A stretch of 64,000 nt of DNA from Octopus sinensis (taxonomy: Eukaryota), in the NCBI RefSeq assembly GCF_006345805.1, contig NC_043000.1:27838001-27902000 (forward strand), given 5' to 3'. Each line of letters starts with the position of its first letter. The stretch's first letter is position 1. The notes below the pieces were generated by a model. The model was given only the letters and a program-made list of their open reading frames with translations. It did not search any database and was not told the DNA's origin. Made by a program: the position numbers and the translations under genes. This document shows, piece after piece, positions 2,720-60,163 of this stretch.

Positions 2720-5668
2720 TTAAAATATTTTAGTCTTAACTCGAGCATGTATACAAGAATTTCCAAGTTCAATTCTGCTGTTTAATTGAATTTCTCCATT
2801 ATTTCTATACATTAGTATTTCAAATGCTTCCATGGAGCAAAGTTGGCAACATACTCTGCTATTTTTATAGGGTTTTGCTCTTCTGACTAATTCCCAATTA
2901 AGGTTATATTTGATATTTTTGTTTTTTAGTTCCCAAATTTTACTAGAAAGAGTGGTGCTATCCGCTTTATGACGTAATTTAAAAGATGAGAGATGGTTAT
3001 TCAATCTCTGTTTAAAATTTACAGTACATCCAACATAAGAGAACTTATTATTATCTGTGGTTACGGAGCACATGTAGATTATGTTAATTAACCCGCATAA
3101 ATCAGGGGCCGGGCATTTTGATTTAATTCTGCAATTACATCTAGGGGCATTATAATTAGAGGTGGAATAACTTGAGGATAGAAGTCTTATGTTACTGTTG
3201 CTCGAAGCAGAGCGGGTAAATTTATCATGATTTTGATTATTGTTATTATCTAAAAAAACTCTATTATTGTAGTTAATATTATTATCTAAAATAGTATTAT
3301 CATTTATAGGTATTCTTATATTTTCATTTGGTTCTAAAGCCCTACTAACATTATTATTATTATTATTGGTGCTGCTATCTAAAATAATGTTATCATTATT
3401 GCAGTTGATGTTATCTCCTAAAGTAGTATTATCATCTGTCGGTATTCCTACACTATCGTTTGGTTCTATAACTCTACTATCATTGTTGATATTGTTGATG
3501 CTATTGGTATTGCTGTCGATATTGTTTTCCAAATGTGTAGTGTTGTTGCTGATAATATTGTTACCCTCATTCACTGTGCTTACATTCCTGGTATTATTCC
3601 TATTATTTACATAATCATTCTTATTTATGTTATTATTGTTGTTAACAATTCCATGGCTTTTGGTTCTATTTATTTTATGACATTCCTTATTATTATTATT
3701 GTTGCAATTATTACTGTCCGTGCTGTTATTACAATTTTCCGTTGTATTTTTATTTTTATTGATTAAATTTTTTCTGGCTAGTTTTATGTTATTATTATTG
3801 ATCTTAGCTATTAAAGTGGACATATTTGGGAGAGTTGAATAAGAAATTCTGACTGTTTTTTTAGAAATAATTTTATGATATCTATGAGAGGATGGGAAAT
3901 TTTTTTCTAGAATTATTTTGAATCTACCCTGAATATCTGATGAAACCGCACAGTTAAAAGGGATGTTTAGCCATATTATGTCTTTCTTATTAAATTTCTT
4001 AGAATTTGAGTTAGGGCTGCTAGAATTTTTCCCACTAGAGTTAGGGTTATTAGAGTTAATGCTACCATCATCAGATTCCTTGTATTTATTAATGTTCCTG
4101 TTAGCATGTTTGCTAGTTTTATCCAAGTTTATTTTATCCTTATTATAAGTATTCCCTGTTATGTTTTTATTAATATTCTTAATATCATTAGGGTACTTTG
4201 CCGTTGTAAATCTATTTCTACTATCATTTCTGGCTTGGTCAATATTGTTGTCTACGTTACTAATAGTGTGTTTCTTAATTTTAATTTTATTTAAGGTTGT
4301 CTTATCAGGGCTATCTGTGTTATGGTCTATGTATTTATCCTTATACTTATTATCATTACGATTAGATGTTGTATTAGATCCACATCTATGTATCTTTTCA
4401 GCTTGATCATTTTTGTTGTTTATGTGGTTATTGCTGTTTAAATTACTTAAATTATTATGATGAGTTCCAAGGTTTTCCGTATCTTCAAATGTAATTTTCT
4501 GGTTATATCCTGCTCTAGATAACGCCTCATTGTAATGTCCCGAGTGTGAGTTAAATATATTAAAATTAGATGATAATTTGGATATTCTTATGGAAATATT
4601 TCTAACTAAGGAATTAATTATATTTGGGGGATGATTAGATAATTTATTTACGTAACTAGTGATTTCACCTTCCTTTCTAAACGGATAATGTAGTTTGGAG
4701 TTAAGGTCTAAAGTGATATCTAGAAAATTAGCTATTTTAATGCTTGGTTCGTAGGTTATGCTAAGGTTGAAATCTTTAAAGAACCTATTAATCTTCTTTT
4801 TTATTCTTTCTATGTGTGATTTATTATTGGTATTGACAACAAACAAAGCATCATCTCTATATAGACCACCTTGCAATTCAGGGATCTCTTTATTAATGCA
4901 TTTCAGTAGATATGCTCCTACTAAATTGGTTACCTCAGCCGAATCACTTGAGCCCATAGGAATATCGAAAAAGTTAGGGGTATCAGCTCTGGTCCATAAT
5001 TTTCCCTCAAACTCAATAAATGTTTTTCTAGCTAAAAGTATAATGTCTATTTCTTCTCTAGATATGAGGGAGCGATTCATCGCGAATATAAGCGATTTAT
5101 TTAATAGGATAGGGGAAATGCTAGAGTAGTAGTTATTTATATCGAACTGAATGAAGGCTAAATTATTCGTATTAGTTAGGGAATTAAACCATTTAAGGAC
5201 CTCATCGGTATTTATCCACAGGCTTAAGGGAAGAAGTGGGGTTATTTGGGGTAAGATATTATCTAGGATAGATTTACTAAGTCGGCCAATATCCGACTTA
5301 GTTGGACAAATGAGTCTTACCGACGGGTTTTCTAGGAAATTCTTTTTATGGTCCTTAAGATTAATCCTAGGTTCGCATGGTACAATTGGTTCAGTTCTGT
5401 CTGCTAGATCATATTTTTCCATAATAGCTTTCATTTCTAAGTTAGTTTCCTTCAATTTTCTCTTGGTTGTAGTTTTGTATTTGGAGTTATATATATATAT
5501 ATATGATTGTATATTTATGCATTCATGCATGTCATCATCCGTCTCTCTTTCATTTGCCTCCTCTTTTGATATTTCATGTCTATTGTATTCTAAATTCTGC
5601 TGTTGAAGTTTTGCTTTTGCTCTCCCGTTTTTTGTTTTCCTTCTCTCCTTATTTGCCTCTTCTTTCAC
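2720..5668 (-). CDS. PLE polyprotein: reverse transcriptase + C-terminal GIY-YIG endonuclease, with two long Asn-rich inserts
   Basis: RT motifs LKDHK..P.VRLICP, FIQFDINNYYSSI, PMGSSDSAE, GLYRDD, NFLDITL. CxCx5C linker (CNCRIKSKC), IIY...YVG...R..NH and terminal CQLC. The first ~60 aa (GTG start, YIYIY) are probably read-through from flank. Cys pattern recalls the Hydra clade; Nematis not excluded. Confidence 0.9.
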   Translation of the reverse strand: MKEEANKERRKTKNGRAKAKLQQQNLEYNRHEISKEEANERETDDDMHECINIQSYIYIYNSKYKTTTKRKLKETNLEMKAIMEKYDLADRTEPIVPCEPRINLKDHKKNFLENPSVRLICPTKSDIGRLSKSILDNILPQITPLLPLSLWINTDEVLKWFNSLTNTNNLAFIQFDINNYYSSISPILLNKSLIFAMNRSLISREEIDIILLARKTFIEFEGKLWTRADTPNFFDIPMGSSDSAEVTNLVGAYLLKCINKEIPELQGGLYRDDALFVVNTNNKSHIERIKKKINRFFKDFNLSITYEPSIKIANFLDITLDLNSKLHYPFRKEGEITSYVNKLSNHPPNIINSLVRNISIRISKLSSNFNIFNSHSGHYNEALSRAGYNQKITFEDTENLGTHHNNLSNLNSNNHINNKNDQAEKIHRCGSNTTSNRNDNKYKDKYIDHNTDSPDKTTLNKIKIKKHTISNVDNNIDQARNDSRNRFTTAKYPNDIKNINKNITGNTYNKDKINLDKTSKHANRNINKYKESDDGSINSNNPNSSGKNSSSPNSNSKKFNKKDIIWLNIPFNCAVSSDIQGRFKIILEKNFPSSHRYHKIISKKTVRISYSTLPNMSTLIAKINNNNIKLARKNLINKNKNTTENCNNSTDSNNCNNNNNKECHKINRTKSHGIVNNNNNINKNDYVNNRNNTRNVSTVNEGNNIISNNTTHLENNIDSNTNSINNINNDSRVIEPNDSVGIPTDDNTTLGDNINCNNDNIILDSSTNNNNNNVSRALEPNENIRIPINDNTILDNNINYNNRVFLDNNNNQNHDKFTRSASSNSNIRLLSSSYSTSNYNAPRCNCRIKSKCPAPDLCGLINIIYMCSVTTDNNKFSYVGCTVNFKQRLNNHLSSFKLRHKADSTTLSSKIWELKNKNIKYNLNWELVRRAKPYKNSRVCCQLCSMEAFEILMYRNNGEIQLNSRIELGNSCIHARVKTKIF

Positions 5669-7334
5669 GTTTCTATAATTGTCAAGTTGTAACCAGCTTC
5701 AGAAAACATGCAGCAGGCGTTTGTCGTTACACGTTGTGAGGAAGAAACTAACAAAAAATGAAGTGAATCTTTATCGCCTCAAATCACAACAAAATACCGG
5801 TAAACAGAACTCCTGATAATCGAATCGTATTTTCCGTTAAAACTAATTCAAAGCAATATCTAAAACATAAACCACAACTGCATATATTAATAGAATGATG
5901 GGAGGTAAATGTGTGCTGGAAATCAGAGATTTAAGACAAAGCCTGACACGAATATACAAATATACATCACATAAAAGACTGATTGCAACAATAAAACCAA
6001 TGTTTTGGATAGAATTTTAGAAAACAATCCAACGGGCGCTATACACATACAGACGTAGAAGGCTATTTAGGCCTATTTGTTGTGACGAACTTAAAATTAC
6101 TGCCATACATCTGATCCTTTTTATTTCATGTCATAATTTAGGAAAACGTAAATTTGTTGGCCCCTGGTTTTCGATTAATATTTAATGATAGTTGCGTTTC
6201 TAAACCGGCAATCAAATTTCGGTAACTTGGTGCAAAAGATTTTTTCTTTTTCTCAGAAAGAACTTCTTTCACATAGTATCGGGTTCTAAAACAATGATTA
6301 CAACATGCGTCGACATACATCACAGAAGACTACGCACACACACACACACACACACACACAAATACACACACACACACTCTCATATATGCAGTCACACACG
6401 CACACAAACACATACACACACAACACACACAGACGCAGACTAAAACACACGCCCCTATACAACAAACTACCAATTGCTATTACGACACATGTTTTCACAG
6501 CTCCTGTCCAACGAACGTCACTTAGAAGGAATCAGTCAGCCAGAGGTTACGTTAGAAGGTTCTTTGTCAAGGTAACACGCAGTGGAATGACAATCAGTCA
6601 CACAGTTATTAACCGAATATTTAATTACCTACACCTTGTCTACAACGCATGTGTACGGCCCTAAGTTATTACAGTTATTTCAGTTTCGGATTCCCTAGTG
6701 AAATTCCTTACTTCTGTAATTGCAATGGCTTTCAGCAGTCAGTAAATCTATATTCTATTTCCATCCATTTGCCGAGATATGCTGGACATAAAAAAATCCG
6801 AATGCCATAAATTGCAATTAATTGCTTTTTAAATTCTTGATTCATATGAGTTCATTAAAAATAAATTTACTCGAAATAATTATTTTCGTCATGACTGGTA
6901 GTTTAAACAGACATAAAGAAACTTTTTTCCTCATCAGACGTATTATGAGATTAAGGCGATGTAGGAGGAAAATACCAGAAGTGAATGTTTGTATATGAAG
7001 TGATCGTTTATAAACCCGAGTTTAGTTTATAAATCTTGGTAATTTAATGTAAGACAGATCCGACAAGCGCAAATGATTCCTACTAAATTTAGACTGCAAA
7101 GATAAGAATATATTGAAATTCGGAACAAATTGATCAGCCCTTGCTCGTTTATATCCTTTCAAATGTTTGAGGAAAGTATTTGTGGCTGTGGATATCCAAT
7201 ACATTCAATAAATTTTTCTTTAAAAGTGCTTCTTTCAGTTTTCTATCTATCTTACCAATATCTGATTTCATATATATAAACAAAAGAACAGGAGTCATCT
7301 TCATTAGTTCACTAGAAGTAATGCACACAGAGTG

Positions 7335-17760: not shown

Positions 17761-18385
17761 GGAAACAAGTAGAGAGGCAACAGTTAATCAGAGAGCTATA
17801 TACATAGAGAAGCACAAAATTAGTTCGTTGATTCGGTAGATAGATACACTCGTACATACCTACATAATACATATATGCATGCATACATACATACGTACAC
17901 GCATACATACATAGAAATGAGCATGCATACATACATACATACATACATACATACATACATACATACATACATACATACATACATGGAAATGTGCATGCAT
18001 ACATCGATTCTCAGCTGCACGCATTCATAGCCACATCCACAGGTACAAAGGTAATTTTAAGGGAAATGGGTAGGCAGGGATGTTGGATTTAATCAAACAG
18101 ACTGAGATGCAAAAGAACCCTTTCTAAATACGCCGATACTTATTCATTTGTCTTGCAACAACCTCAATCATTCTTAAGGAATCATTACGAAATTTCACTC
18201 AGAATGTGTGCATGCTTAGATCTTGAAGTAAAATACGGATGGATCAAAAAATGCAAATTGTAGACTAACTGCATTCAGTTGGTATGAAGACAGAACATCC
18301 TAATGATAAACGTGGCAAAGAAAGGAAAGTAGTACAAAATAATCAGCAACGGAGTCTCTCCTCTCACAGAACGAACAATTTTCAC

Positions 18386-18596
18386 TTTATTTACATTTGA
18401 CGGATATTTGTCCTCATCTCGTTTGTTGTTAAGACAATGTTTCAGCTGATATAACCTCCAGTTTCATAAGGTGTCTTCGGGGAATTTCGAACCTGGATTC
18501 TCATTCCTAATCTATATTTCGATCTTGTTGTTATTATTAATATTATTATTATCATTATTATTATCATCATCATCATCATTATTATTATTATCATCA

Positions 18597-18646
<50 letters not shown>

Positions 18647-18721
18647 GAGGTCACTACCTGGAATCGAACTCGGATCCTTGGGCTTAGTATCCCACGCTCT
18701 TAACCACTGCGCCATATGCCC
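18386..18721 (-). mobile_element. tRNA-head + (AAT)n + hammerhead unit, left (inverted) copy
   Basis: Minus strand: A box tggcgcagtgg, B box gagttcgattcc, (AAT)n, then decayed HHR at ~18431-18476; inverted homolog of 18724-19700. Confidence 0.8.
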
Positions 18722-18831
18722 GTGGGCATATGGCGATGTTATGGACTCGATTTCTTTGTCCGTCCTTGTAGTGGTTAAGAGCGCCGGCTATTAACCCCAA
18801 GATTCAGAGTTCGATTCGAGGCAGTGACCTA

Positions 18832-18911
<80 letters not shown>

Positions 18912-18920
18912 TAATAATAA

Positions 18921-19505
18921 TACACCCTGAAGCTGTAACTGAAGGAGAAAATGCAACGATTCTGTGGGACTTTCCAGTACATACAGACCGAACCATCAAA
19001 GACAATAAACCGGATATTGTTGTAAAAGACCAAAACAATAAAGTTTGCTTATTGATAGACATGAGCATCCCCTGTGATCATAATATCTCGGCGAAAGAGT
19101 TTGACAAGCTCAGAAAATATAAAGACCTGCTCATTGAAATTGAGAAAATGTGGCATCTCAAAGCGGTTACAATACCAGTGATCGTAGGAGCACTAGGAAT
19201 GATCAAGAAGGGAACCGAAAATTATATGAGACTGATCCCTGGCTTACCATCCCTGCAAGAAGTGCAAAAGATTTTCTTAACTGGTACATCACACGTATTG
19301 AGAAGAGCATTGTCGATGTCAGAACTATTACTACCCATGTATTTTAATTTAACTTTATTTCTATCAAAAAAAAAAAAATGAACGAACGAACTAGTGAATT
19401 TAGTTTAATGGCCTACCAATGTATACTGTGAGTTTCTTTCCCCTAGGAGTCGGGAAGACACTCGGCAAGAAATGGAAGCAAATTTGAAGGAAGAAGAAAA
19501 AAAGA
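18921..19505 (+). mobile_element. R4/Dong-like RLE 3' fragment nested in (AAT)n
   Basis: ILWDFPVHTDRTIKDNKPDIVV..LIDMSIP..KLRKYKDL..PVIVGALG. Confidence 0.85.
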
Positions 19506-19584
19506 TTATAATAATAATAATAACGACAACGACAATATCGAAAAATACCTTACGAATGAGAATCAAGTGACGAAATTCCCCCAA

Positions 19585-19630
19585 AACATCTGATGAAGCC
19601 TGGAGTATATATTAGCCGAAACGTTGAGTT
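19585..19630 (+). ncRNA. Minimal type I hammerhead, stems partly decayed
   Basis: aacat CTGATGA agcctg..tagcc GAAA cg TT gagtt. Confidence 0.65.
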
Positions 19631-20038
19631 AATAACAATCAAGATGAGGACAAATATCCGTCAAATGTAAATAATGTACATCTCATAAATATAGAACTGT
19701 ATTAATAATGTAAAGTATAGAAGCCATCTTATCATGGCTAACCACATTGGGGAGGGGGTGTTACTGTAGCTTTATAGCCCCAAGAGATCTTCGTCGCAAG
19801 CTGGCTTTAGACACAATATCAGTGTCCTTGAGGTATTTGCAAAGGGAGGCCATCCCTTCCTCGCAAGCCTGAGTGATACGCTCGAACTAGTTCCCAGTCT
19901 ATGACCAGGCTCGTGAGACCTACACTGGCCTATATATCCACATGTTAGCCCATAAATAAGAAATCTGGTGAATAATCATCCTTGACCTGGAGAGATTACC
20001 AATGATGATCATTAAGGTTTTATCTCTATTACTACACA

Positions 20039-20260
20039 GCGGTGAGCTGGCAGAATCGTTAGCACGCCGGGCGAAATGCTTAGCGGTATTTCGTTTACTG
20101 TTACGCTCTGAGTTCAAGTACCGCCGAGGTCGACTTTGCTTTTTATCCTTTCGGTGTTGATTAAATAATTACCAGTTACGCACTGGAGTCGATATAATCG
20201 ACTTGATCCCTTTGTCTGTCTTTGTCCCCTCTATGTTTAAACCCCTGTGGGCAATAAAGA
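20039..20260 (+). mobile_element. tRNA-derived SINE (family A)
   Basis: Multi-copy in the window; B-box-like gagttcaagtacc. Confidence 0.85.
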
Positions 20261-32211: not shown

Positions 32212-32811
32212 TTATTGATATAATAAATAGGACAAACCCCCATTACTCTACCCTATGTATAGCACAGATCATGAGCAGCCTAACCTCCAAAAATTAATAT
32301 AAGCAAGCAAGAACCATTCAATACAAGCTCTACACTCGAAATCAAAAGTAACACACGGAACCATGAAAACAAACGATCTTACAAACGCAACAATCGCGAC
32401 CATAACGTATTTTAAGACCAAGTTCTTACTGTGACTGGGATGAAGTTGAGATCAACAGCACGTACTTATAAATAACAGCGCTCCTACCTTCCAGTGGACG
32501 CTGGAAAAAGTATAAGTATTTGTGAAGGAAATCTAATTCTCGCCGACAACTATGATTGTCACACGCTGACGAGAGGTCAATACCTCGAAACTCGAGTCCG
32601 TGTGTATCGTAAGTTGAAGACGGGAAGGATGACTTCCCTTTGCAAATACTGACAGGACACAGAAAGTGTGTCTATGGCCAGCTGGAGGAGTGTGTCCTCC
32701 TGGGGCTAAAAACTACAGTAGCATCCACCCTTAGGGGTAGCCATATTGAGATGGCAAATATACGTCACGATGTGTTACCGCTACTGTATATAACTCACTT
32801 TGATATTTATC

Positions 32812-59515: not shown

Positions 59516-59636
59516 GTGTATATATATATATATATAATATTAAATAGAGACAAAACCACTATTATGCAAATCAAACAAAGAAAGACTTAATCCAATACAT
59601 AAAAAATTTTATATAAATTAAATAAAATTAAATCAG

Positions 59637-59682
59637 CCACTACAATTGTTTCGTGTCTCTTCTAGGGACATTCATCAGGTGG
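59637..59682 (-). ncRNA. Type I hammerhead (left arm)
   Basis: ccac CTGATGA atgtc cctagaaga gacac GAAA caattg TA gtgg. Confidence 0.9.
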
Positions 59683-59703
59683 TCTTCAGATCTTCTCTGA
59701 AGA

Positions 59704-59749
59704 CCACCTGATGAATGTCCCTAGAAGAGACACGAAACAATTGTAGTGG
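59704..59749 (+). ncRNA. Type I hammerhead (right arm)
   Basis: Identical to the left-arm motif. Confidence 0.9.
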
Positions 59750-60163
59750 CTGATTTAATTTTATTTAATTTATATAAAATTTTTTATGTATTGGATTAAG
59801 TCTTTCTTTGTTTGATTTGCATAATAGTGGTTTTGTCTCTAATTAATATTATATAATATTTTACTATAAAATTGGATTCAATCCTAAATCTGATTTTTCC
59901 CTGTAAATTTGGATTTATTCTCTAATATTTATTATTATATATATATATATATATTTATAAACGTATCGGAGTTTATTGTTTAAGATTACATAGATTCCTC
60001 TGCAGTGTTGTTTTGCACTTATAATAAAATGAATATATACAAATTATAAAATTAATTCTAAAATATACAGTACAGTACATCTTCTACTTCAAGGATTTTC
60101 ACCCATCGCGAGAGGTTTTGGAACGTAACATCCGTGGTAAACGGAATGCAGTAGGAAAAGTCC

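Follow-up and report, generated by a model that had tools for sequence, protein, structure and literature searches.

In LINE-1 twin priming, two ends of the target prime on one RNA, giving an inversion. In the synthesis of retroviral strong-stop DNA, the cDNA runs off the capped 5′ end of its template. Among Penelope-like elements (PLEs), Pen2a_Av of Adineta has head-to-head arms of which one is tailed, palindromic junctions, an AT-rich target and a hammerhead in the repeat, and its tail of 30-40 nt lies in the open reading frame (ORF) (PMC3846280, PMC8557442). An antisense template was proposed for the head-to-head repeats and for intron retention, and an unspliced sense template was left possible (PMC3846280). 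The Poseidon PAc protein of Anolis, predicted to be a dimer, cuts and extends both target strands in vitro and starts internally, on an uncut hammerhead RNA template, at two sites that bound the tail; these sites are in the ORF, with no strand difference and no target homology (PMC11167929). In the accessible part of that paper, the two start sites are not connected to inverted arms. Penelope of D. virilis was described as having a 75-bp intron in the 5′ UTR, soon after the start site and ending just before the hammerhead (PMC2377424, PMC4209133). For Octopus vulgaris, young Penelope-like families are listed without structure in the accessible part of PMC13282606.

The window, a stretch of 64,000 nt of Octopus sinensis DNA, contains a mirror-image insertion of 407 bases whose layout is one already published for PLEs. 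Its arms (59531-59690 and 59696-59855) are reverse complements of 160 bp with one mismatch (59544/59842), where the change is carried by the left arm, and are separated by 5 nt, TCTTC (59691-59695). An 82-nt extension (59856-59937) is present on the right arm only, and (TA)n lies at both flanks. The preliminary description had given the same dimensions (160-bp arms with one mismatch, a one-sided extension of about 80 nt, (TA)n on both sides), and the sequence bears all of them out. No other non-microsatellite palindrome was in the list for the window (arms of at least 25 bp, spacer of at most 30 nt). The parts of the insertion are as follows.

59519..59535, no strand: left half of the (TA)n target, overlapping the arm end
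59531..59696, minus strand: left ('A') arm, AGAAG of the exon-1 end and exon 2 to unit position 160, ending at the first fixed family terminus
59637..59682, minus strand: type I minimal hammerhead motif, minus-strand copy, by direct reading
59691..59696, minus strand: the 'spacer', an exon 1/exon 2 splice junction between 59692 and 59691, with a 1.1-kb GT-AG intron removed
59696..59855, plus strand: right ('B') arm, the portion common to the left arm, unit positions 1-160, parent 5′ UTR
59704..59749, plus strand: type I minimal hammerhead motif, by direct reading and family covariation
59856..59937, plus strand: 82-nt tail between both fixed termini, unit positions 161-242
59936..59954, no strand: right half of the (TA)n target

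Because (TA)n overlaps the end of the left arm, a target-site duplication is unreadable. Base 59696 is a 1-nt microhomology common to both arms. The copy has no coding sequence: its hammerhead, both termini and the tail are all within the 5′ UTR of the parent element, where the counterpart of the tail is about 55 nt ahead of the ATG. The head-to-head arms with one tail, the palindromic junctions, the AT-rich target and the hammerhead in the repeat are as in Pen2a_Av, but the tail here is 82 nt long and in the 5′ UTR.

The two hammerhead motifs were correctly described as identical and pointing outward (plus strand, 59704-59749; minus strand, 59682-59637). They read CCAC / CUGAUGA / stem II / GAAAC-AAUU-GUA / GUGG, with a 4-bp helix I (CCAC/GUGG) and cleavage predicted after 59745. 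Their description as intact holds for CUGAUGA, GAAAC and GUA but not for position 10.1-11.1, which is A.C in place of the conserved G-C. Rfam at gathering thresholds gave no match in the window, and folding of the monomer gave no hammerhead fold (z 0.65); such misfolding is expected because the motif is of the dimer type. In the family, the core is conserved (CTGATGA in 209 of 219 arms, GAAAC in 208 of 226), while position 10.1-11.1 is A.C in 99 arms, A.A in 67 and A-U in 46, and G-C in none of 219. The palindromic loop of helix III/loop 3 is AATT in 192 arms and GATC in 28, with 6 off-diagonal, and one inherited change may be counted repeatedly here. The switching of the loop fits a dimer-type motif under selection in the parent (cf. 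PMC4209133). The start lies no more than 2 nt from the predicted cut in seven of 126 arms and 4-9 nt above it in seven more; no control arm (0/30) starts there. Since the window copy includes the motif uncut, it must have been made from an uncleaved template. Another hammerhead-like motif, outside the family, is at 32558-32600 on the plus strand of the window (CTGACGA, a GAGGT/ACCTC stem, GAAAC-TC-GAGTC).

The layout had also been likened to that at 18386-19700. This likeness turned out to be superficial. The arms there (18384-18555 and 19505-19677) are 82% alike with about 1 kb of other sequence between them, the left core is broken (CTTATGA), and comparison of 18384-19677 with the window unit and the parent found no similarity. 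At this locus, the arms belong to another hammerhead family and stand head to head; between them are a tRNA-like inverted repeat (~18648-18833), (TAA)n and an ORF's 3′ end. The ORF looks like that of a LINE with a restriction-like endonuclease. Pfam gave no family for this ORF end, and ARAGORN found no tRNA at 18000-20100.

A search of the 2.72-Gb genome with the right arm gave 628 candidate matches, the best 40 at 96-100% identity, and a 30-mer from the arm had 858 exact matches. Among the first 100 of these 858 matches listed, a count by hand gave 29 pairs lying head to head within 1 kb and none lying tail to tail within that distance. The arm samples analysed below were chosen by similarity or by exact patterns and are biased to young and long arms. 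Ten loci were left out, since the search with the right flank of locus L020 matched an unrelated SINE. A long inverted repeat of about 820 nt adjoins the insertion in the left flank of L022/L023. Between the arms of the window copy, one of 158 sites differs. Among 59 long pairs the median is 2 differences, and 15 have none or one. The window copy is young, yet ordinary for its family.

The locus is a 5′-truncated, two-armed member of a multi-copy PLE family whose parent carries an ORF, and the preliminary description was right in calling it a young PLE insertion with one inverted arm, one direct arm and a tail. A near-complete parent of ~8 kb (L073/L199) was reached by walking upstream from long copies. 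Its order is inverted unit, direct unit, ~55 nt, ORF, TG-rich 3′ region, exon 1, intron, unit and (TA)n; the intron is 1.1 kb, the 3′ region is long and the ORF has one stop. The layout of EN+ Penelope-like elements, with a partial-tandem pLTR, an inverted 5′ copy and a one-sided tail, is thus present (L199/L073; 82/88 pairs). Among the loci examined no fully intact copy was seen: L073 has the one stop and L212 is without a start. In a copy other than the parent, a frame of 859 codons is open, with the start missing.

The parent protein has a reverse transcriptase (RT), an N-rich linker/insert, CxCX5C (CTCRDKSKC) and, at its C-terminus, a GIY-YIG-like domain. The RT and GIY-YIG motifs were read by eye, and homologues carry PF26215; in the parent itself, Pfam detected neither RT nor GIY-YIG. 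Motifs of the Hydra clade are present: QSDKTRN (DKG changed to DKT) and RIKWKA, with RWK/RWR in four homologues. The CCHH cysteine pair is absent, one C lies between VYK and YIG, and CYLC..E..N..CRH surrounds E and N. Arm ends A and B mostly continue into (TA)n, as for Hydra-clade insertion. These features agree with the published Hydra clade in DKT, KWK/RWK, the lack of CCHH, CxCX5C and CxxC/CxH around E and N, as well as in the C-terminal GIY-YIG, the hammerhead and the (TA)n insertion (PMC8557442). By its motifs, then, the parent appears to match the published description of that clade. It is unlike the clade in its size (~8 kb against 'generally <3 kb'), its N-rich inserts and its long TG-rich 3′ region (PMC8557442). 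Assignment to Neptune/Nematis was dropped, as the CX2-5CxxC linker and CCHH of their definitions (PMC8557442) were not found. A non-LTR retrozyme, with head-to-tail units each carrying a hammerhead (bioRxiv 10.64898/2026.07.22.740005), was also rejected, there being a single head-to-head pair here. On the minus strand of the window, a 992-codon open frame (2720-5698) belongs to a second element with Hydra-like motifs; it shows 48% identity to the parent's RT region, a CNCRIKSKC linker and two N-rich inserts, and its N-terminus is apparently missing.

In the family, arm ends cluster at two unit positions, ~160 (A) and ~242 (B). Head-to-head pairs combine one A and one B end in 85 of 91 cases, or 82 of 88 once two duplicates and an unrelated neighbour are set aside. 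Among single arms, 18 end at A, 22 at B and 2 elsewhere, and those that end at A mark it as a start site in its own right. Both sites are AU-rich and end in a TATTATA-like sequence that merges with the (TA)n target. At the B (tail) end, the number of ATT units before (TA)n varies from 0 to 11, mostly 1-4. The TATTATA-like ends and the variable ATT units together suggest primer pairing and slippage, and reiterative copying at the start of synthesis is a possible source of the variation. The two start sites that bound a tail, the presumed cutting and extension of both target strands and the uncut hammerhead RNA template recall Poseidon PAc (PMC11167929), but the sites here are in the UTR, have TATTATA-like ends and are used one each per insertion (82/88).

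The 5-nt spacer of the preliminary description was right in size but is not a neutral spacer. On the minus strand, 59691-59696 reads AGAAG|A, a splice junction, and the left arm reads AGAAG|ATCTGAAG across it, that is, the last five bases of exon 1 followed by exon 2. Long copies of the family read GAATAGAAG|GTACGT ... TTTTTAG|ATCTGAA (unspliced) and short copies read GAATAGAAG|ATCTGAA (spliced). Exact patterns found 156 spliced exon junctions versus 51 unspliced intron ends, the intron being lost in 156 of 207 matches, the left arm in the window included; reversed control patterns gave no matches. The exact loss of a GT-AG intron implies a sense RNA template. Most short copies here are intron-less, whereas PMC3846280 and PMC8557442, in their accessible parts, report retained introns and suggest a template that is antisense or unspliced. 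As in D. virilis Penelope, the intron follows soon after the start site and ends just before the hammerhead, but it is 1.1 kb long (PMC2377424, PMC4209133). Splicing leaves the ribozyme unchanged, since the acceptor lies 9 nt upstream of helix I.

Among 45 loci examined, 19 ORF-bearing ones reach the unit start, or 20 with L199. Nineteen of these 20 copies, most of which are from older subfamilies (83-90% identity), have the intron end, one has a junction with a donor in the 3′ UTR, and none has the exon-1 junction. This second donor (GAGTCTG|GTAAG in the parent, about 200 nt past the stop codon) was spliced to the same acceptor as exon 1 in six arms (L252-L256, L315, L235); in L235, the unit and ORF come after this junction. 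Such junctions imply that the downstream repeat is not always unspliced, and they reflect either read-through splicing or a back-spliced circle.

Spliced copies have a hard upstream edge. The match to exon 1 is no longer than 29 nt in 126 of 130 distinct spliced junctions; it is 31-32 nt in three more and at least 71 nt in one, the spliced arm of L026. The edge sequence is ACTTC, 27 nt above the donor, and resembles an initiator. Ten of the 15 arms with the 27-nt edge have a G just beyond it, a position that is T or C in the element. Among single-arm copies whose edges fall at 23-27 nt, 7 of 8 show a G there, although three of the seven have another possible source for it: two could have taken it from the opposite arm or from a short inverted piece, and one from a (TG)n flank. 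An extra G is a signature of cap copying. From the DNA we infer a transcription start site and a cap at this edge. The window copy holds just 5 nt of exon 1. Among unspliced arms, some stop at any point of the intron and others extend beyond it: in a sample enriched for long arms and with rough lengths, 30 of 67 chain past the donor. Exon-1 sequence continues further upstream at 26 of 29 unspliced donor sites; of the remaining three, L188 and L251 reach no further than 35-38 nt above the donor, and the third belongs to a diverged subfamily. Given L026, L188 and L251, the spliced and unspliced edge classes are not absolute. Short inverted or duplicated pieces of the exon-1 end were seen at the 5′ junction in L125, L165 and L126, and they resemble templated insertions by a repair polymerase.

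We consider it likely that the insertion arose from two primings at fixed internal sites on the same capped, spliced sense RNA at one cut in (TA)n. The endonuclease would cut both strands within the repeat, and one primer would begin at site A and the other at site B of one RNA. Both cDNAs would run toward the cap, about 27 nt into exon 1, and off the 5′ end of the RNA. Trimming of their 3′ ends would follow, and a microhomology (1 nt in the window copy) would join them head to head. The product is predicted to be a dead end, with the ORF absent and the start site lost. Long copies, mostly keeping the intron, would start in the downstream terminal repeat of a read-through RNA; this origin would explain the apparent intron retention in productive PLE copies. 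Unlike in LINE-1 twin priming or strong-stop synthesis, both start sites would be fixed and the two cDNAs would overlap on the RNA. A search of the accessible literature found no published account of spliced, run-off or twin-primed Penelope copies, and prior mention is possible.

The two arms of a pair agree in their template. In 59 pairs scored at 17 polymorphic sites, arm haplotypes were discordant in 33 of 951 comparisons (3.5%); shuffled arms gave a mean of 36% and a minimum of 26% (1000 shuffles). Both arms were spliced in 30 pairs and both unspliced in 6, and none of the 36 was mixed (P about 8e-6 under random pairing). Rare changes are on one arm in 145 cases and on both in 23; because most are on one arm, later conversion does not explain the agreement of the arms family-wide. 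The arms of the window copy share three rare variants, one absent from all other arms, which arm-to-arm conversion or fold-back could also give. Twin priming on two RNA molecules from one source locus, held by a dimeric enzyme, would equally give haplotype agreement with one active locus. It would suit the dimer predicted in PMC11167929, and it would avoid the strand displacement needed when both arms copy the same stretch of one molecule. We nevertheless find it doubtful, given the lack of mixed pairs although the same subfamilies copy both forms. One RNA molecule cannot be distinguished from two of one locus in the same splice state.

Fold-back of one strand had been offered in the preliminary description as a way to form the palindrome. 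By this account, which was put forward in PMC3846280, a single cDNA (or, in the proposal for Adineta elements, an antisense RNA) would fold back and serve as its own primer; the second arm would be copied from the first and stop at A. The arms are nearly identical, the junctions are often palindromic, some with short inverted pieces (L125, L165), and the B arm extends further 5′ in 34 of 82 pairs, a nesting in the direction that fold-back permits. In 15 of the 82, however, the B arm begins inside the unit and the A arm extends beyond the unit start, so that each has sequence absent in the other. Since neither arm contains the other, no single folded strand yields both. The window copy has the same non-nested polarity by 6 nt (A to -6, B from +1). 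The 18 single arms that end at A are without a partner, and the 156 spliced junctions need a sense template. The non-nested pairs and the single arms at either site indicate two priming events, and fold-back is unlikely.

A host role of the hairpin or the ribozymes, as a source of small RNA, an ADAR substrate or for RNA cleavage, has little probability. As had been foreseen, a read-through transcript is predicted by folding to form a 160-bp hairpin (-262 kcal/mol), and such a duplex would be the basis of a role on transcription. In it the ribozyme would be masked, and it is without G10.1-C11.1 in any case. No ORF of a host gene was recognised nearby, just repeats and retroelement frames, in a reading that would miss small exons. 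The suggested ADAR editing found no support, rare variants common to both arms showing no A>G excess (3/23). The locus is probably neutral, and the short copies are likely functionless.

More improbable still is that the palindrome moves as a whole, as a non-autonomous element like a MITE or a retrozyme. The copies are short and without an ORF, and four loci have one central junction (L017, L019, L021, L160). Otherwise the junctions vary by locus, the window junction was seen once among 15 short-spacer loci, and a tandem array is absent. Even among the four, the A and B arms of L160 are swapped relative to the others, as would fit a single microhomology used repeatedly. Finally, a library or assembly fold-back artefact is barely credible: although no contig of the four public runs X1-X4 bridges the palindrome, these contigs break at microsatellites and give neither a bridging contig nor an empty site, whereas the flanks differ and are not mirrored, the ends of the copy fall on both fixed family termini, the arms differ by one base, dozens of other loci share the design with other junctions, and a contig of X1, which may be the source sample, matches 59604-59690 without difference.

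Beyond this locus, we lean towards the reading that PLEs copy capped, spliced sense mRNA, with one enzyme complex priming twice at two fixed positions of the 5′ leader and synthesis running off at the cap, and that only copies from the downstream repeat keep the intron and the ORF. The genome would in this way become strewn with palindromes that have no intron and are akin to strong-stop DNA. The origin of PLE inverted repeats and tails, and the keeping of introns, are left open in the accessible parts of PMC3846280, PMC8557442 and PMC11167929. With the window locus comes a further PLE family, young and high in copy number, that has motifs of the Hydra clade and a leader of known structure. 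This family is a natural test, in which the intron reveals the template's strand and state and polymorphic sites reveal where the template came from, and it supplies exact priming sites for an in vitro assay. If the proposed origin is true, intron retention and inverted pLTRs would need no antisense template, and the positions of the start site, of the cap and of the two priming sites could be read from the genome to the base.
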